In this document: in pieces, positions 8,135 through 64,000 of the stretch | Position numbering within the stretch: position 1 is the stretch's first letter | How the letters are laid out: each line of letters opens with the position of its first letter | Assembly: GCA_030827135.1 (NCBI GenBank) | Contig: JAURFE010000005.1 | Location: forward strand, 66,257-130,256 | Length of the DNA: 64,000 nt | Direction: 5' to 3' | Source: Vicinamibacterales bacterium | Lineage (GTDB): Bacteria > Acidobacteriota > Vicinamibacteria > Vicinamibacterales > SCN-69-37 | Notes under the pieces: model-generated | The model's input: only the letters and a program-made list of their open reading frames with translations | What the model was told of the DNA's origin: nothing | The model's database searches: none | Position numbers and translations under genes: made by a program

Positions 8135-11100
8135 ATGTTGATGCGCCGTCCGCGCATACTCGCGCGAGTGACCACCCTGCTGGCCGTTGTGATGGCCACG
8201 CTCATCGCGGCCCCCGTCGCGGCCCAGACGCCGTTTGTGCCGTACTTCGGCAAGAACCGCGTCAAATACGACAAGTTCCAGTGGCACATCTACCAGACCG
8301 AACACTTCGAGATTTATTACTATCCGGAACTCGAGCCGCACCTCGAACGCATCGCCTCGTATGCCGAGAGCGCCTACCAGCGGATCAGTTCCGAACTGAA
8401 GCACGATCTGGCCAAGCGGGTGCCGCTCATCCTCTTCAAGACGCAGAGTGAGTTCCAGCAGCAGGACATCTCCGGGAGCGAATTGCCCGAGGGGGTGCTG
8501 GCGTTTGCCGAGCCCTACCGGGACCGGATGGTGTTGCCCATCGATGAACCGCCGGATCAGCTGTACCGGCTGATCACCCACGAACTGACGCACGTCTTCG
8601 AGTTCGACGTCATCCCCCGCGGCCTCATGGGCTCCTCGATTCCCCTCTGGGTGGACGAGGGCCTCGCCAACTACATGGCCGGGTACTGGAACGTGCTGGA
8701 CCTGATGCAGGTGCGCGATGCGGCGCTGACCGACAGCGTGCCGCGCATGAGCGAATTCGAGAGCCAGCCGCTCTCGGGCCGCCTCCCCTACTCGATGGGC
8801 CACGCCGCGTTCGAGTTCATCTCCTCCAAGTGGGGCCAGGACGGCCTCCGGCAGTTCCTCTTCTCCCTGCGCAAGAACGTCATCGGCGGCGGCGAAAGCG
8901 CGTATGAGGAGGCCCTGCGCGTCAAGCCGGACGAATTTGATGAACAGTTCGAACGCTACATCAAGGAACGGTTCCGCGCGTTCCGCGACCAGGAGCGCCC
9001 CGCCGACTATGGGCGGAATCTCGCGCCGCGCCGCGATCGGTCGCAGTACGTATCGGTGCTGTCGATTGAGCCCTCCCCGATCGGCGATGTCATCGCGACG
9101 GTCGTGGGCAACTCCCGGGATCAGGAACTCGACATCATTCTGATCTCGGCCAAGGACGGCCAGGTGATCCGCAACCTGACCAAGGGATTCGATCACCGCA
9201 GGGGCTGGGAGTACATCGCAACCGCCGGCGGCCTGCGCGGCAACATGGTGCCGTGGATCTCGTGGGCCCCGAAGGGCGACCGCATCGCGTACTTTGTGCG
9301 GACCGAGAAGCACAAAACCCTCGTCATCCAGGACGTCGTCAGTGGCCGCATCGAACAGCGGCTGAATCTTGAGCAGGTGGACGCCCCGGAATCCCCCGCC
9401 TTCAGCCCCGATGGCACCCGCGTGGCGTTTTCGGCGCTGAAAGGCGCGGTGAGCGACATCTTTGTCGTGGACCTGGCCACCGGCGACCTGACCAACCTGA
9501 CCGACGATGCCTTTGCCGATTACGCGCCGACCTTTGCACCCGACGGCCGCACGGTCGTCTACACGGCGCGGGTCAGCGGCAACGACAAGTTGTTCCGCGT
9601 CGGCGCGACCGGCGGCGCCAAGACGCAGCTGACGTTCGGCACCCACGACGACACCGCCGCAAAGTTTTTTGATGCGACCACGGTGTACTTCATCTCGACG
9701 GCGACCGATCCGGCCGTAATGCTGGCGCCCGACGTGGCGCGTGACGGCAACATTCCGAACATCTGGTCGCTGAACCTCGCGACGGGTGAACTGCAGCAAT
9801 GGACGGACACGGCCACCGGCAACGTCTCCCCCGCCATTCTGCGTGAAGGCACCACGACGCGCGTCGCGTTCGTGTCCTACTACAAGGGCGAAAACGGCAT
9901 TCATGTGATGAGCCGCGACAAGGCTCTGCTCGCCGTCCCCTCATCGGACTTCGGCGCGCCGGGCCCGATCATCGACTTCCAGCCGCCCCTGAGCCACACG
10001 CTGGTGCGCGACAACATCCAGCGCAAGGGCCCGTGGGAGAAGCTGACGCTCGACGGCCGCCCCCCGGTGAACCTCGGCGTCACCAGCGGCGGCGACTTCT
10101 TCGGCGGCACCCAGGTGTCGTTCACGGATCTGCTCGGCGGCAAACAGATCAACTTCTTCGCATCCTCGGTCTCGCAGTACCGCACGATGGCCTTGACCTA
10201 CATCAATGTCGAGAACCGGGTGCAGTACTCGGCCCAGGCGTTTTCGCAGGATGTGTTTTATTACGGCCAGCTCGACAACTATCTCTACGGCGCGGGACTG
10301 GTGCCGTTTATCGACCGTGACCGCGCGCTCTCGGTCCGGACCCAACGCGGCGTGACCGGCTTTGCGATCTACCCGTTCAACCGGTACACGCGTCTGGAGC
10401 TCTCCGGCGGCTATGTCTACCTGCGGGAACGCTTCGCCGACGAGGAGCTCCAGGATCTCTCCGAGCAGTATCAGCGGGAGAACTTCGGCACCACCTTCTA
10501 TCAGAGCGGGCACGTGGTGCCGCTGGGCCTGTCACTGGTGCACGAGACGACGGTGTTCCGCGACTACGGCCCCGTCTCGGGCACCGCCGCGAATATCGGC
10601 GTGCAGTACTCGCCGAAAATCGGCAACTCGCTGACGCGCCGGACGGTGGAGGGCGATGTGCGGTTCTACCAGCGGATCGGCACCAACGGCGTGCTGGCGT
10701 TCCGCGGCCGCGGCCTGAAGAGCTGGGGCACCAACCCCGACTTCCTGTTCTTCGGTGGCAACTCCGAAATGCGCGGCTACGAGTACCTTGAGTTCATCGG
10801 CCACAAGGCGTTTTTTGCCAACCTTGAACTGCGCATCCCGCTGGTCGAGGCCATGCTGACGCCGCTGGGTGTGGTCGGCGGCCTGCGCGGCACTGCGTTT
10901 TTCAACGTCGGTGGCGCCGGCATCAACGGTCAGTCGTTCTCGCCGTTTGCCAGCAAGGTGGAGATCCTGCCGGTGCTCGTGGACTATGAGTTTGATCCGT
11001 TCCGCGGGTACACACCGGTGTATCAGGATGTGCTCTTCTCCGGCTTCCGCCTCAAGGATGCCCGCGCCGCCTACGGCATCGGTCTCCAGAGCTTCCTCCT

Positions 11101-11239
11101 CGGCTTCCCGATGCACTTCGACTGGTCGTGGAAGACACACCTCAATCGCGACTACGAGGACCTGATCTACTACTTCTACGGCGGCAGCGAAGCTTTCCGG
11201 AAGGTCAAGTTCTCGTTCTGGATCGGCTATGACTTCTGA
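8135..11239 (+). CDS. large outer-membrane protein: peptidase-MA-like domain + TolB/PD40 beta-propeller + Omp85-like C-terminal barrel
   Basis: Signal peptide ending PVAAQ. HELTHVFE plus downstream VDEGLANY (HExxH...E). PD40-like repeats (SPDGTRVAF, APDGRTVVY). The C-terminal ~350 aa show an amphipathic beta pattern ending FSFWIGYDF. ATG 8135 follows GAGGTGAG; the ORF opens at GTG 8126. Confidence 0.85.
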   Translation: MLMRRPRILARVTTLLAVVMATLIAAPVAAQTPFVPYFGKNRVKYDKFQWHIYQTEHFEIYYYPELEPHLERIASYAESAYQRISSELKHDLAKRVPLILFKTQSEFQQQDISGSELPEGVLAFAEPYRDRMVLPIDEPPDQLYRLITHELTHVFEFDVIPRGLMGSSIPLWVDEGLANYMAGYWNVLDLMQVRDAALTDSVPRMSEFESQPLSGRLPYSMGHAAFEFISSKWGQDGLRQFLFSLRKNVIGGGESAYEEALRVKPDEFDEQFERYIKERFRAFRDQERPADYGRNLAPRRDRSQYVSVLSIEPSPIGDVIATVVGNSRDQELDIILISAKDGQVIRNLTKGFDHRRGWEYIATAGGLRGNMVPWISWAPKGDRIAYFVRTEKHKTLVIQDVVSGRIEQRLNLEQVDAPESPAFSPDGTRVAFSALKGAVSDIFVVDLATGDLTNLTDDAFADYAPTFAPDGRTVVYTARVSGNDKLFRVGATGGAKTQLTFGTHDDTAAKFFDATTVYFISTATDPAVMLAPDVARDGNIPNIWSLNLATGELQQWTDTATGNVSPAILREGTTTRVAFVSYYKGENGIHVMSRDKALLAVPSSDFGAPGPIIDFQPPLSHTLVRDNIQRKGPWEKLTLDGRPPVNLGVTSGGDFFGGTQVSFTDLLGGKQINFFASSVSQYRTMALTYINVENRVQYSAQAFSQDVFYYGQLDNYLYGAGLVPFIDRDRALSVRTQRGVTGFAIYPFNRYTRLELSGGYVYLRERFADEELQDLSEQYQRENFGTTFYQSGHVVPLGLSLVHETTVFRDYGPVSGTAANIGVQYSPKIGNSLTRRTVEGDVRFYQRIGTNGVLAFRGRGLKSWGTNPDFLFFGGNSEMRGYEYLEFIGHKAFFANLELRIPLVEAMLTPLGVVGGLRGTAFFNVGGAGINGQSFSPFASKVEILPVLVDYEFDPFRGYTPVYQDVLFSGFRLKDARAAYGIGLQSFLLGFPMHFDWSWKTHLNRDYEDLIYYFYGGSEAFRKVKFSFWIGYDF

Positions 11240-11266
11240 TGCGGCGCTTGCCGCGCATCAGAAGTC
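11231..11266 (+). terminator. stem-loop overlapping the stop codon of the 8135-11239 gene
   Basis: gacttctgatgcg (11231-11243) pairs perfectly with cgcatcagaagtc (11254-11266), giving a 13-bp stem. There is no clear T-tract. Confidence 0.5.
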
Positions 11267-11415
11267 ATTGAGGATGGAGGATTGAGGATTGAGGATTTAT
11301 TGTGGGAATGAGGAATTGGGATTGAGGGATTGAGGGATTGAGGGATTGAGGGATTGAGGGATTGAGGCGACGCCGAACACCACAAATCCTCAATCCTCAA
11401 TCCTCCATCCTCAAT
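11267..11415. repeat. ATTGAGG-family element: 32-nt perfect inverted repeat flanking ATTGAGGG x5.9 tandem core
   Basis: Left arm attgaggatggaggattgaggattgaggattt (11267-11298) is the exact reverse complement of 11384-11415. The core at 11321-11367 is attgaggg repeated: five G3 tracts with 5-nt loops. Confidence 0.95.
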
Positions 11416-11430
11416 AACACGCTATACACC

Positions 11431-11898
11431 ATGGCTTTTCCTCAGGATTCGTACACCGAAATGGTGCAGGTCGTGTTGCCGAACGATGCCAACCCTCTGG
11501 GGTTCATTCTCGGCGGCACGGTCATGCACCTGATTGACATCGCCGGCGCCATTGCCTGCCATCGGCACACGCGCAGCCTGCTGGTCACGGCCGCCGTCGA
11601 TGATCTGCAGTTTCTCCACCCGATCAAGGTGGGCGACCTGATCATTCTGCAGGCGCGTGTGACGGCGGCCTGGAAGACCTCACTGGAGGTGGAGGTCGAG
11701 GTCTATTCGGAGGAGACACTGACCGGCGTGCGGCGCATGACGAGCCGCGCCTATCTGACCTTTGTTGCCATCGACCGGCAGGGTGGCAAGGTCACGATTC
11801 CCCCGCTCGAACTCACCACGGACGCGGAACGCGCCAATGCCGAAGGCGCGCAGGAGCGCCGGCGCGCGCGCCTGGCGCGCAAGGCGACGGCCGGTTAG
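11431..11898 (+). CDS. acyl-CoA thioesterase (hotdog fold, YciA-like)
   Basis: [29 protein letters not shown] is typical of YciA-type thioesterases. ATG 11431 lies just past the repeat; the track ORF start at 11362 lies inside the repeat. Confidence 0.85.
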
Positions 11899-14414: not shown

Positions 14415-14566
14415 GGCAATTGGGCAATGGGGCAATGAGGCAATGGAATGAGGCAATGTGGCAGTGGGCCAATGATGAGTGTTGGGGTCGCGCTGTAGTC
14501 ATTACCCTATTGGCCCATTGCCTCATTCCATTGCCTCATTGCCTCATTGCCCCATTGCCTCATTCC
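14415..14566. repeat. GGCAATGR-family palindromic array
   Basis: ggcaattgggcaatggggcaatgaggcaatggaatgaggcaatgtggcagtgggccaat, then a centre, then attggcccattgcctcattccattgcctcattgcctcattgccccattgcctcattcc. Lies between convergent genes and overlaps the kinase stop at 14560-14562. Confidence 0.95.
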
Positions 14567-21221: not shown

Positions 21222-21376
21222 GTGGTTCGTGGTTCATGGTTCATCGGTTCATGGTTCAGCGGTTCTGTTCATGGTTCTGGGTGCCGGGTTCGTCGTTCAA
21301 GGTTCAAGGTCGGTTCGAGGTTCCTCGGAACCCCGAACCAGCACCATGAACCATGAACCGATGAACCATGAACCCC
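21222..21376. repeat. GGTTCAT-family palindromic array
   Basis: The 27-mer ggttcatggttcatcggttcatggttc (21231-21257) has its exact reverse complement at 21348-21374. The 90-nt centre contains further degenerate units. Confidence 0.95.
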
Positions 21377-51350: not shown

Positions 51351-52333
51351 TGCACGCGACGTGGTTTGATGGCCAGACGGCCACGCCTCATGAGGCCACC
51401 CTCAGCATTGCGCACCATCGCGTGCGGATACACACCGCACACGGTTCGTTCGAGTGGGCGCTGAGTAAGGTGCACCTCACACCCGAACTGGGGACAGCGC
51501 CCAGATGGATGTATTGCCCTGACGGCGGGGCGTGCCAGATCACGGACGTCGCCGCCTTGCGCGCCGCGCTCACGGCAACAGGCCAACCGGTGAGTGTGGT
51601 GACGCAGTGGCACGACGACATGCGCCTGGTCCTCGGCGCAATCGGGGCCTTGATCGCGGTCGTGGTCACGGCCTACCTGTTCCTGCTGCCTCCCGCTGCG
51701 GATGCCCTGGCGCGCCGCCTGCCTGACTCGGCGCTGGACATCCCCAGTCAGACCGCCGCACTGTGGCTCGAGGAGCAGATCTTTGAACCCACCCAACTCA
51801 CTCCACAGCGCATCATCGAATTGCAGGCGCTGCTGAACAGCCTTGAGCTGCCGGACGTTCCCGATCGCCGTCCCATTCGCCTCGAATTCCGACGCAGCGC
51901 ACAACTCGGCCCAAATGCGATCGCACTGCCGTCAGGGTTGATCGTGATGACCGACGAACTCGTGGCGCTGTCGACCGATGACCGCGCGCTGCTCGGCATC
52001 CTCGCCCATGAAGCCGGTCACATCGAGGGACGACACGGCCTGCGGCAACTCATCAAGGATTCGACAGTGGGCCTGATCATCGCGGGGTTGCTCGGTGACG
52101 TGAACGGCGCCCTGCTGATTGCGCCAACCGCTTTTCTCAAGACGCGCCACTCCCGCCAGTTCGAAGAAGAAGCCGACGCGTTCGCGATTGACGTGCTCAC
52201 GAAGATGGGCATCCCCACCGCGCCGATGGCCGACCTGCTGGCCGCCATGCCCAGCACCGGCCAAACCCCCGGCTATCTCTCCACGCACCCACCGACGCCG
52301 GAGAGGGTTCAGAGGCTAAAGCATAGGCAATGA
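51347..52333 (+). CDS. M48 family zinc metallopeptidase with N-terminal extra domain and TM helix
   Basis: HEAGHIEGRH (HExxH) and downstream EEEAD. The start overlaps the DUF898 stop (GTGATG). Confidence 0.85.
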   Translation: MMHATWFDGQTATPHEATLSIAHHRVRIHTAHGSFEWALSKVHLTPELGTAPRWMYCPDGGACQITDVAALRAALTATGQPVSVVTQWHDDMRLVLGAIGALIAVVVTAYLFLLPPAADALARRLPDSALDIPSQTAALWLEEQIFEPTQLTPQRIIELQALLNSLELPDVPDRRPIRLEFRRSAQLGPNAIALPSGLIVMTDELVALSTDDRALLGILAHEAGHIEGRHGLRQLIKDSTVGLIIAGLLGDVNGALLIAPTAFLKTRHSRQFEEEADAFAIDVLTKMGIPTAPMADLLAAMPSTGQTPGYLSTHPPTPERVQRLKHRQ

Positions 52334-52492
52334 GGCAATGAGGCAATGAGGCAATGGGGCAATGGGGCAATGGAATTGCCCCAATGGCTCAATGGGCGAA
52401 TGCAATTCCGGCAATTCTGATAATTGAATTGAAGCATTGCGGAATTGCCCCATTCCATTGCCTCATTGCCCCATTGCCCCATTGCCTCATTC
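52326..52492. repeat. GGCAATGR-family palindromic array (largest copy)
   Basis: Six units at 52326-52373 and complementary units at 52455-52491. The centre is AT-richer. Lies between convergent genes. Confidence 0.95.
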
Positions 52493-53227: not shown

Positions 53228-53338
53228 GGGTTCATCGGTTCATCGGTTCATGGTTCAGCGGTGCTGAACCCGGCACCACAAACCCGGCACCAAGAACCAA
53301 GAACAGAACCATGAACCCTGAACCGATGAACCATGAAC
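53228..53338. repeat. GGTTCAT-family array (degenerate) in a divergent intergenic region
   Basis: gggttcatcggttcatcggttcatggttcagcggtgctgaacc ... gaaccatgaaccctgaaccgatgaaccatgaac. Confidence 0.9.
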
Positions 53339-54573: not shown

Positions 54574-55206
54574 ATGCGCTCCGTCGTTCTTTCGCTATTG
54601 GCCGTCCTGAGCCTGGTACCACTCGGCGCGCGGCCACAGTCTCCCCTGCTCACCCCCGCCGCACTCAACGCGACGGCCCCGGCTGAGTTCGACGCGATGG
54701 TGAACACCTCGGTCGGCAGCTTTGTGATTCACGTGAAGCGCGACTGGGCGCCGAATGGCGCGGACCGGTTCTACAACCTCGCGAAGAACGGCTACTACGA
54801 CCAGAATCGGTTCTTCCGCGTCATTCCCCAATTCATGGCGCAGGTGGGATTACATGGTGACCCGGCGATCGCTGCCGCGTGGAAGGATGCAACCATTGAG
54901 CCCGACCGCGCGATCATGAGCAACATCCGCGGCATGGTCACGTTTGCGAAGGGCACACTCGCCTCCTCGCGCACCACACAGTTCTTCATCAACTTCGGGA
55001 ACAACTCGCGCCTCGACATCGACGGCTTCGCGCCGTTCGGCCAGGTCATCACCAGCATGGTGCTCGTCGAACGCCTCTACAGCGAATACGGCGAAGGCCC
55101 CGACCAGGGAGCCATCATCGCCAACGGGAATGCCTGGCTCGTCCGCAACTTCCCGCGCATGGACTTTATTCGGAGCATTCAAGTCAATGAGGCAATGGGG
55201 CAATGA
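54574..55206 (+). CDS. cyclophilin-type peptidyl-prolyl cis-trans isomerase, secreted
   Basis: Signal peptide. FFRVIPQFMAQVG and MVTFAKG...TQFFINF. The last six codons lie in the repeat. Confidence 0.9.
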   Translation: MRSVVLSLLAVLSLVPLGARPQSPLLTPAALNATAPAEFDAMVNTSVGSFVIHVKRDWAPNGADRFYNLAKNGYYDQNRFFRVIPQFMAQVGLHGDPAIAAAWKDATIEPDRAIMSNIRGMVTFAKGTLASSRTTQFFINFGNNSRLDIDGFAPFGQVITSMVLVERLYSEYGEGPDQGAIIANGNAWLVRNFPRMDFIRSIQVNEAMGQ

Positions 55207-55357
55207 GGCAATGAGGCAATGGAATGCCCGCATGGGTGAATGAGCCAATGGAATGGCCGTAATCACTCAATCACTCAATTACATTGCGGGAATTGCATTA
55301 ACCCATTAGCCAATGGCGGCAATTCCATTGCCTCATTGCCTCATTGCCCCATTGCCT
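55185..55357. repeat. GGCAATGR-family palindromic array
   Basis: caatgaggcaatggggcaatgaggcaatgaggcaatggaatg ... ccattgcctcattgcctcattgccccattgcc. The centre contains aatcactc x2. Lies between convergent genes. Confidence 0.95.
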
Positions 55358-55362
55358 AATTC

Positions 55363-63033: not shown

Positions 63034-63118
63034 GGTTCATGGTTCATCGGTTCATGGTTCCGGGTGCTGTTCCGGGTGCTGGGTTCCCCATGAACCATGA
63101 ACCGATGAACCATGAACC
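63034..63118. repeat. GGTTCAT-family palindromic array
   Basis: 27-mer arms at 63034-63060 and 63092-63118 are identical to those at 21231/21348. The 31-nt centre contains cgggtgctg twice. Confidence 0.95.
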
Positions 63119-63120
63119 AG

Positions 63121-63179
63121 ACACAGGACGTCCGCCAGAGCCGGCCGCGTCAGCGGCCGGCGAGGCGGACGTCCTGTGT
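63121..63179 (-). terminator. long GC-rich hairpin spanning the stop codon of the partial gene
   Basis: acacaggacgtccgcc (63121-36) pairs with ggcggacgtcctgtgt (63164-79). There is an inner stem gccggccgc/gcggccggc around the stop at 63150-63152. Confidence 0.6.
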
Positions 63180-64000
63180 CTTGCGTTCTCCGTTGCCAAG
63201 CGTCACTTTGAGGGCAGAGCCAATCAGGGATTCCAGAAACGCCGCACTGCCAAGTTCACGCGTGTCCAGCTCGGTCACGGCCGCGAGGTAATAGTCGCCG
63301 GGCGGCAGCCCGGCGACCACATAACTGCCATCGAGGGCCGGTTGTACGGCGTGGGTGCGGCGCGACCCGGGCCCCCAATGCGCGCGATTGGCCGAAAACA
63401 CCACGAGCGGGTAGGCCGAAAATGGCTGCGACGCGCCATCAAACACACGGCCTGACAACTCCGACGGCCGGTCCGTCAACGTGACCACAATGCCCGAGAG
63501 GTCGGTGCCGCCGGTGAGGTCCACGCCCTCGTCCGCGAGGTCGCGGCCGCCGAGTTGAATGGACTTCACCATCCAGCCTGTCCCCGGCTCGGTCGGCGAG
63601 GTCCGCATGCCGGGGAACGCGACGGCCGCGCGGAACCGCCCCGGCACCAGCCCGGCCACTTCAAACGTCCCGTCGGCCTTCACAACGCCGGACGCCTGCC
63701 CCATCTGCAGCAGGGCCATGGCCGGCATCTCGCGGTTTGCCGCGATATCCGCCAGTCCAAACCGGATATTGGTCAGCGTCGCGGGCGCCGTACCGTCGAA
63801 CGCGACGCTGCCTGACACCTTCAGGCCCTCACGCAGTTGCAGGCTGAGTGGCCCGATCGGCTGCCCATTCACCTCAACCGGTTCACGCGCCCACAGCAAC
63901 AGGGCATTCCCGTTGCCCCCCATCATGCCGGCCATCATCCCGGCGAGCATGGCTTGTTGCGTGGCCGCGCCCGTCGCGGCTGCACGTGTTCCCGGCAGTG
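63150..64000 (-). CDS. carboxypeptidase regulatory-like domain protein, C-terminal part (gene continues beyond the window end)
   Basis: The frame stays open to base 64000. GRFRAAVAF, PPGDYYLAAV, and the tail ...LKVTLGNGERKTQDVRLAGR parallel the C-terminus of the 3424-5244 protein. Confidence 0.6.
   Translation of the reverse strand, partial: LPGTRAAATGAATQQAMLAGMMAGMMGGNGNALLLWAREPVEVNGQPIGPLSLQLREGLKVSGSVAFDGTAPATLTNIRFGLADIAANREMPAMALLQMGQASGVVKADGTFEVAGLVPGRFRAAVAFPGMRTSPTEPGTGWMVKSIQLGGRDLADEGVDLTGGTDLSGIVVTLTDRPSELSGRVFDGASQPFSAYPLVVFSANRAHWGPGSRRTHAVQPALDGSYVVAGLPPGDYYLAAVTELDTRELGSAAFLESLIGSALKVTLGNGERKTQDVRLAGR

Follow-up and report, generated by a model that had tools for sequence, protein, structure and literature searches.

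Pairs of inverted, G-rich heptameric simple sequence repeats (SSRs) were described in bacteria by Rehm et al. (2015; PMC4692102), with GGGAATC as the unit in Xanthomonas and GGGGAYT as the unit in Nostoc. The same study tied the preference of these arrays for four units to the formation of a G-quadruplex (G4). In Coxiella burnetii, the S23p intervening sequence (IVS) has a 28-bp stem, carries heptamers that vary between strains and is cleaved by RNase III (Warrier et al. 2016; PMC4990558). A heptamer hairpin of hmw1A in H. influenzae is also processed by RNase III, and the number of its repeats sets expression (Rapun-Araiz et al. 2025; PMC12721329).

The locus analysed here lies in a 64,000-nucleotide stretch of bacterial DNA (hereafter, the window) from an assembly of 3.24 Mb, 65% G+C and 80 contigs. 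It holds an inserted, gene-less member of an ATTGAGG hairpin family, with a core prone to slippage. This element is probably an internally deleted copy of a hairpin cassette, which in its intact form is a small PF05635 four-helix-bundle gene between two inverted ATTGAGG heptamer arrays. The features of the locus are listed in Table 1.

Table 1. Coordinates of the foldback element, its parts and the flanking genes in the window.
Feature	Position	Strand	Basis
Upstream gene, 1037 aa	8126..11239	+	ORF list, NCBIfam and Pfam matches, C-terminus
Stop-codon hairpin, perfect 15-bp stem, 10-nt loop	11229..11268	+	Stem 11229-11243 / 11254-11268
Whole foldback element, gene-less ATTGAGG-family copy	11264..11418	+	Inverted repeat, family architecture, fold z-scores
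Left G-rich arm ATTGAGG ATGGAGG ATTGAGG ATTGAGG ATTT (ATTGAGGATGGAGGATTGAGGATTGAGGATTT)	11267..11298	+	Exact reverse complement of 11384-11415
Degenerate units ATTGTGGG AATGAGG AATTGGG	11299..11320	+	Repeat family D1; hold two extra G3 tracts
ATTGAGGG octamer array, G4-capable core	11321..11367	+	Unit count strain-variable; aligned to gene-bearing copy
CGACGCCGAACACCACAAAT, putative remnant of the 5' end of a lost four-helix-bundle ORF	11368..11387	+	14-mer match, collinear alignment
Right C-rich arm AAAT CCTCAAT CCTCAAT CCTCCAT CCTCAAT	11384..11415	+	Reverse complement of left arm
15-nt tail AACACGCTATACACC	11416..11430	+	Absent in congeners, similar to sister-copy tails
Downstream gene, 155-aa hot-dog (4HBT/YciA-like) acyl-CoA thioesterase	11431..11898	+	NCBIfam YciA and PaaI, Pfam 4HBT

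An earlier sequence-only reading had reported two arms of 32 nt built from ATTGAGG and ATGGAGG heptamers around a core of 5.9 octamers with five G3 tracts and 5-nt loops. When the features were re-derived from the sequence, the arms were found to be exact reverse complements of 32 nt each, and the core was found to be ATTGAGGG repeated 5.9 times with five G3 tracts and loops of 5 nt. With its flanks, the palindrome extends to 41 nt at 93% (inverted repeat I1, 11264-11304 / 11378-11418), which includes the GT(T/C)...AAC ends of the ATTGAGG family, and two further G3 tracts lie directly 5' of the core. ATGGAGG occupies the second heptamer of both arms, a combination present in no other copy. The distance to the thioesterase ATG, earlier given as 16 nt, is 15 nt, and the ATG is at 11431. 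The tail that fills this distance is similar to the AAC(T/A)CG..CTCTC tails of sister copies and contains no Shine-Dalgarno-like sequence (11416-11430).

The upstream gene ends in TGA (11237-11239); its product contains Tricorn-N/PD40 beta-propeller regions and, towards the C-terminus, shows a weak Omp85-like match. This protein matches the TolB-propeller and Omp85_fam models of NCBIfam, and its Pfam families were read on identical metagenome genes. Both sides of the junction are conserved among congeners, as the C-terminus of the upstream protein (FSFWIGYDF*) and the N-terminus of the thioesterase are kept in them. In at least six genomes of the same genus (G011, G015, G009, G010, G012 and others), only 0-8 nt separate the stop from the ATG, which makes all 191 nt of the spacer new, including the stop-codon hairpin and the 15-nt tail. 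The flanks of G011 are 90% identical to the studied junction; in G001, the gap is 23 nt. Two congeners carry foldbacks of other families at the same junction, of the GGTGCTC/GTGCACC type and 134 nt in G014 and of the CAGGGCA type and 97 nt in G008. Judged from these alignments, the element is a recent insertion in the studied lineage.

We read ten of the at least 22 public contigs that encode the identical thioesterase protein; these ten derive from freshwater metagenome assemblies and one GenBank metagenome-assembled genome and represent near-identical strains. All ten carried the insertion. Their spacers measured 175, 183, 191 or 199 nt, corresponding to 3, 4, 5 or 6 ATTGAGGG units, and such strain differences in repeat number are one mark of a phase-variable SSR. 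The arms and the stop-codon hairpin were invariant in the ten contigs, save two point changes. The length of the ATTGAGGG core thus appears to change by replication slippage. An exact-pattern search of metagenomes for the left junction gave no match.

The element belongs to a large family. In the host genome, Tandem Repeats Finder detected 371 arrays with a 7- or 8-nt period, which form 279 clusters; these are largely intergenic and are enriched between convergent genes. A genome-wide search for ATTGAGG, suggested in the earlier reading, found about 30-40 ATTGAGG-type loci within the 279 clusters, and ATTGAGGATTGAGG occurred 63 times in the genome against 0.02 expected. Four units were the commonest array size. 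Among paired arrays, 52 had the G-rich array first and one had the C-rich array first. About 14 loci are full ATTGAGG foldbacks of 120-210 nt with one common architecture, namely GTT, four heptamers, ATTGGCAATTG, variable octamers, an inner region, CAATTGCCAAT, four heptamers and AAC. The variable ATTGNGG(G) units of these foldbacks contain GATTGATTGA, and the mirror image ends with four CCTCAAT heptamers and AAC. The studied element has the same arms and the same polarity as these copies. A search of Rfam returned sub-threshold look-alikes of miRNA precursors only, as a generic hairpin would give, and a scan of the genome collection found the arm-linker 22-mer only in G014; the subfamily is therefore narrow.

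The flanks of 14 sister copies were joined and used as queries across the genus. Empty sites were found in G011 and G014 for several copies (el2, el7, el9, el10, el12 and el13), three sites were common with G014 (el11, el13 and el14), and one sister junction holds another family in G010. The third heptamer varied among copies and was often mirrored in the opposite arm (AATGAGG/CCTCATT, AGGGAGG/CCTCCCT, ATGGAGG/CCTCCAT). The two arms of one copy were slightly more alike than arms across copies, a modest effect in a permutation test (p = 0.036). Arm perfection may be maintained by intrastrand copying, through snap-back or template switching, or by selection for the stem.

The origin of the element was traced through a resident ATTGAGG foldback of 680 nt (C22:171417-172093), which adjoins ftsZ and holds a 130-aa ORF (C22:171546-171935) between ATTGAGG arms, together with the linker and subterminal motifs of the family. 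The ORF is assigned to Pfam PF05635, the 23S rRNA intervening-sequence protein (E = 2.5e-13), and its product also matches PDB 2RLD. Avd is related to the PF05635/S23p family. Each of the six PF05635 genes of the genome is enclosed by inverted 7/8-nt arrays of a family not shared with the other five (ATTGAGG, GGTTCAT, GGTCCAG, GGCGGAT/GGTGGGC, GGCAATG and GGGAATCGG), and at least 194 of the 279 clusters can be assigned to these six arm families.

In the resident copy, the G-rich octamer array reaches the ATG and reads ...GGGATTGACGATGACGCTGCCGAACAACACAAC; at the same place, the studied element reads ...GGGATTGAGGCGACGCCGAACACCACAAAT, and the alignment of the two copies is collinear. The counterpart of CGACGCCGAACACCACAAAT in the resident copy reads ATGACGCTGCCGAACAACACAAC. 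The 14-mer GCCGAACANCACAA occurs at two places only in the genome, the studied element and the start of the resident ORF. In the local alignment, 13 of 14 nt match with a gapped extension, with p ranging from 3.5e-4 to 1e-3. The 14-mer and the alignment thus identify the segment between core and right arm as a probable scrap of the lost PF05635 gene. When the genome was searched by BLAST with the resident copy, no further gene-less copy matched into the ORF. The studied element also lacks the inner-arm linker and the subterminal motifs of the ATTGAGG family, which is consistent with an internal deletion: the inner right arm would be missing because one deletion removed the ORF together with the right subterminal region. 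The stem, which is 32 bp and perfect, agrees with the inverted heptamer arrays of about 24-32 bp expected of a cassette. The loop contains no PF05635 ORF, only the 14-20-nt remnant of its start, and we therefore filed the element as a gene-less derivative rather than as a cassette. The ATTGAGGG core would then be what is left of the G-rich leader that once preceded the lost gene.

These comparisons also bear on a simpler origin, in which slippage and local duplication made the arrays and the palindrome in place, with no descent from a cassette. The octamer number does slip between strains, and an excess of heptamer SSRs in bacteria is known (PMC4692102). However, unlinked copies share a complex, non-repetitive architecture (ATTGGCAATTG, GATTGATTGA, CAATCAATCCCACAATCAGCAATTG and the GTT/AAC ends), their polarity is fixed at 52 to 1, the element holds an ORF remnant, and the array type tracks the resident gene across species. 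A birth in place is thus very improbable.

The last of these points comes from a comparison of the resident site within the genus. The PF05635 gene of the ATTGAGG clade occupies one syntenic site, between the ftsZ stop and the start of the next gene, with the left boundary GATTGTACCTGCG, in seven genomes (G000, G014, G010, G005, G007, G001 and G008). The arms of the resident gene are of ATTGAGG types in most species, of the ATGGRGG type in G010 and of the GGATGGCGG/GGATTGCGG type in G001. Of the genomes with the gene, G010 had 0 ATTGAGG dimers and the others had 63, 43, 84, 30, 29 and 10; the count was 0-2 in seven of the eight assessable gene-less genomes. ATGGRGG dimers numbered 62 in G010, 38 in G015 and 0-2 elsewhere. 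At least ten such dimers were present in 7/7 gene-bearing and 1/8 gene-less genomes (Fisher p = 0.0014, a value that overstates independence, as the genomes are related). From species to species, the arm type of the resident gene is matched by that of the dispersed arrays.

The gene-less genomes differ at the resident site. G011 and G002 have only a gene-less hairpin with matching arms, and these remnants show the decay path. The site is without a cassette in G006, G009 and G018, and also in G012 and G013, where this was judged from match spacing alone. G015 has a deletion at the resident site and carries arrays (48 dimers) with no gene. Arrays were also present in G003 (56 dimers), G016 (11) and G019 (13), where no ortholog was found and the resident site was not assessable.

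The sequence-only reading had described the stop-codon hairpin as an ordinary 13-bp hairpin at 11231-11266. A hairpin is indeed present there; its stem is of 15 bp, and it is not ordinary, as its 3' arm repeats, in inverted form, the last four codons and the stop of the upstream gene. It shares 2 nt with the foldback element and is missing in all congeners, where the stop and the ATG abut; it was therefore copied from the end of the upstream gene. Across the genome, 18 perfect hairpins with the 5' arm over the last codons and the stop were found among 2393 genes, and 7/18 adjoin arrays (odds ratio 8.8, p = 1e-4), two of these seven being internal to arrays. The other five array-side hairpins have inverted coding sequence as their 3' arm, which extends to the foldback; one such mirrored hairpin lies beside a GGTTCAT foldback at 63034-63119 of the window. 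Additionally, the palindrome runs on into the flanks in the sister copies el3, el10 and el13. From the sequences, we infer that a mirrored gene end may be the trace of snap-back or template-switch synthesis, a process that would likewise account for perfect arms and for palindromes that run into the flanks.

We also considered a REP/MITE-type element mobilised by a RAYT (Y1 transposase) or by an insertion sequence with matching terminal inverted repeats. The terminal inverted repeats, the many copies, the intergenic positions and the filled and empty sites are all as such an element would have them, and the genome contains two RAYT genes. However, the REPs on either side of each RAYT are classic ones of its own and have no relation to ATTGAGG, and a link to the RAYTs was rejected on this ground. 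Neither the target-site duplication nor the cognate transposase with the same ends that would define a MITE was found at the element; the search for direct target-site duplications was negative at the sister copies as well, and GTT...AAC is part of the palindrome. The sole gene found between ATTGAGG arms encodes the 130-aa four-helix bundle, which has no catalytic domain. Taken together, mobilisation of this type has very little probability. Retro-mobility was rejected too, as the genome (100% complete by markers) contains no PF00078 reverse transcriptase. No SbcD_C domain was matched in the genome, a domain that is not universal in control genomes. For the ATTGAGG family, we saw no enzyme, no target-site duplication and no movement event.

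The folding of the element was then considered. The RNA fold over 211 nt had a free energy of -97.4 kcal/mol (z = -8.1), and the DNA fold over 155 nt had -36.7 kcal/mol (z = -8.9); the z-scores were computed against 200 shuffles, of which 0/200 folded as well. For the G4 potential, the prediction suggested in the earlier reading was run, and the core (11321-11367) fits the canonical pattern of at least four tracts of G3 or longer with loops of 1-7 nt, as a (G3N5)n motif on the sense strand. G4Hunter scored the core at about 1.3 (1.28 for its full length, 1.32 for the highest-scoring 25-nt window), a value between 1.2 and 1.5; scores of at least 1.2 were reached in just 1.1% of the 25-nt windows across the 64 kb. 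The structural potential pointed out earlier, a 32-bp stem and a canonical motif on the sense strand, is thus real in both parts. When G4 formation was allowed in ViennaRNA, a three-layer G4 was predicted within the loop of the intact arm hairpin, at -102.1 vs -97.4 kcal/mol, so that the quadruplex option adds -4.7 kcal/mol in this thermodynamic prediction.

On this potential, the sequence-only reading had built the speculative proposal that a quadruplex in the core and a hairpin of the arms affect one another and could act as a structural switch. Such a switch would tune termination or translation at the thioesterase. The canonical sense-strand motif with its G4Hunter scores is in its favour, as are the in vitro G4 formation of related G-rich heptamer repeats (PMC4692102), the retention of at least five G3 tracts in all strain variants and the G-tract-rich leader of the resident gene in several species. 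The mutual influence was not supported by the folding prediction, in which the G4 sits in the loop of an intact 32-bp stem and both structures coexist without competing. Nor was the switch itself supported: the spacer is missing at the orthologous junction in at least six congeners, and strains differ in carrying 3 to 6 units. Genome-wide, 86 of the 318 canonical G4 motifs lie within 7/8-nt arrays, and in the arrays of co-directional spacers, 20 are sense vs 17 antisense. The eight ATTGAGG loci with at least four G3 tracts have them on either strand, and the expanded octamer is likewise found on either strand among sister copies. The arms, which hold GG tracts only, show the same four-unit preference, for which a stem of about 28 bp accounts equally well.

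The locus therefore shows neither the conservation (congeners without the element, 3-6 units) nor the strand bias (20 vs 17) of a functional G4 regulator, and nothing points to selection of the motif as a switch. We regard the switch as quite improbable; the G4 motif appears to be a property of the repeat unit. The G-tract array may still exert a local regulatory effect, and by analogy with the 5'-UTR hairpin of hmw1A (PMC12721329), a hairpin-based effect on the downstream gene is plausible.

A further possibility is that the stop hairpin and the foldback were domesticated as a terminator or mRNA stabiliser, which would end or stabilise the upstream transcript while the thioesterase is expressed separately. 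Strong stems, the enrichment of arrays between convergent genes and their position near stops (median 16 nt from the stop vs 62 nt from the start) agree with this role. Nevertheless, a scan of 11000-11600 found neither promoter-like nor terminator-like sites, and the GC-rich stem with a U-tract of an intrinsic terminator is not present at the element. The insertion is also recent and of variable length, and it folds alike on both strands, as a passenger palindrome would. We consider this role unlikely, if somewhat less so than the other alternatives above.

For the preferred reading, a gene-less copy of the PF05635 cassette, a different consequence can be proposed by analogy with rRNA. In a co-transcript of both genes, the 32-bp stem would act like an rRNA intervening sequence and serve as a putative substrate of RNase III, whose gene (rnc) is present in the host genome. 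The cut would uncouple the two cistrons, which would be translationally coupled in the relatives, and the stop-codon hairpin would be left as a protective 3' end.

A wider reading, which we put forward as a tentative possibility, is that the resident four-helix-bundle protein acts in trans on its own arms and seeds or maintains dozens of gene-less hairpins at gene junctions; in transcripts, RNase III would then cut the copies as mRNA intervening sequences, and slippage could tune their G-rich loop. Such a mobile system would work with no transposase, no reverse transcriptase and no direct target duplication and would mirror the ends of neighbouring genes. The long-noted surplus of bacterial heptamer repeats and the S23p/IVS family would then be two faces of one system. 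Inverted heptamer arrays (cyanobacterial STRR and Xanthomonas GGGAATC), 23S rRNA intervening sequences and S23p/PF05635, all long unexplained, meet at this locus, which offers a dated insertion with an empty site in congeners, a gene scrap, strain-level slippage and a genus-wide match between arrays and arms. The results also call for caution before G4 motifs in such arrays are taken for dedicated regulators.

Compared with known systems, the locus is closest in its arrays to the SSR pairs of Rehm et al. and the cyanobacterial STRR. Here too, hundreds of 7-nt arrays are dispersed in intergenic regions, with a four-unit preference and convergent inverted pairs, lie close behind the upstream stop, vary in unit number among relatives and consist of units capable of G4 formation. 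As to the unit, which is GGGNATC or GGGGAYT in those pairs, the arm unit here is ATTGAGG, with GG only, and the G3 tracts sit in the 8-nt array of the core, ATTGAGGG. The same genome carries, elsewhere, the GGGAATCGG family and an ATTGGGG variant, which equals GGGGATT. The host also belongs to another phylum, and the paper by Rehm et al. names no associated gene, whereas each PF05635 arm family here has a gene between the same arms.

The ORF-bearing intervening sequences of 23S rRNA (helix 45 in Coxiella burnetii, and Leptospira) share with this family a terminal-inverted-repeat stem of about 28-32 bp, strain-variable tandem heptamers before the ORF, decay of the ORF and, in the resident copy, PF05635 in the loop. 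In contrast to them, the studied copy has lost its ORF and is placed in an mRNA spacer, between two protein-coding genes and not at helix 9, 25 or 45 of 23S rRNA; no rRNA genes are assembled in the host genome. Cleavage by RNase III, described for Coxiella, is proposed here by analogy. The hmw1A hairpin resembles the element in that a heptamer arm pairs with a complementary G/C-rich arm into a long hairpin upstream of a gene, with repeats that vary between strains. There, the repeats form one arm and their number sets the expression of a surface adhesin, whereas here the variable array lies in the loop and the gene is a housekeeping-type thioesterase.

MITEs, REP/BIME and eukaryotic foldback elements are likewise short, non-autonomous palindromes, related to a longer gene-bearing copy, that occupy intergenic sites and differ in presence or absence between relatives. 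The arms of Drosophila FB elements consist of tandem subrepeats, as here. Unlike these elements, the ATTGAGG family comes with no transposase and no direct target duplication, and its gene-bearing copy keeps to a single syntenic site genus-wide.

At the counterpart of the junction between the upstream gene stop and the thioesterase ATG, where the window carries the gene-less ATTGAGG foldback (an inverted pair of 7/8-nt arrays), foldbacks of different unit families were found in the sister species G014 (L003) and in the same-genus genome G008 (L004). The junction of el7, one sister ATTGAGG copy of the source genome, is taken in G010 (L023) by a foldback of another unit family. Foldbacks of different unit families thus came to occupy the same stop|ATG junctions independently in different species, and tightly coupled gene junctions are either hot spots or the sole tolerated sites.

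The GGTTCAT foldback near the end of the window is directly followed by a hairpin of ~28 bp. A gene on the minus strand, with its start near 63150, supplies the distal arm of this hairpin with its 3' end, while the loop contains the stop codon. This hairpin and the stop-codon hairpin at 11229-11268 represent one mirrored gene-end pattern.

ATTGAGG copies also lie beside tRNA and ribosomal protein genes (Table). Upstream of the tRNA-Met (CAT) gene lies an ATTGAGG foldback, and downstream of it lies a G-rich ATTGAGG/ATTGGGG array; the source genome and G014 have this arrangement in common. The foldback between rplK and rplA is missing in G011 and G014.

Table. Coordinates of repeat elements and associated genes in the window and the source genome (C, contigs of the source genome).
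Feature	Location	Remark
tRNA-Met (CAT) gene	C22:165292-165367	within region C22:165141-165430
ATTGAGG foldback, 208 nt	C80:3354-3561	between rplK and L1 leader of rplA
GGTTCAT foldback	window 63034-63119	region with hairpin, 63034-63190
GGCAATG and GGTTCAT family foldbacks	window 14415-14564, 21223-21374, 52325-52491, 53229-53338, 55185-55361	
GGCAATG family PF05635 gene	C61:59402-59638	
GGTTCAT family PF05635 gene	C11:1370891-1371178	
CCGAAGT/CCGGAGT array	C11:419779-419861	example; ~10-20 loci genome-wide
REP-RAYT system (L013)	C11:1080320-1080970	outside window
REP-RAYT system (L014)	C51:143091-143600	outside window

The GGCAATG and GGTTCAT families each have one PF05635 (four-helix-bundle) gene of their own elsewhere in the source genome. 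For the CCGAAGT/CCGGAGT array family, no PF05635 gene with matching arms was found in this assembly.

A search of the whole source genome for the SbcD C-terminal domain (PF12320) gave no match, and its assembly contains no 16S rRNA. Lack of a hairpin nuclease, for which the PF12320 search is weak evidence, could let so many palindromes persist more easily. The outer-membrane-type genes here are consistent with a diderm host.

Two REP-RAYT systems were located in the source genome. One RAYT is bounded by 51-nt AAAAAGACGTCGGGTGTCTTTTTC hairpins, and the other has three GTACGTAGGACGCGCTGGGTTGTAGCGCGTC REPs per side.
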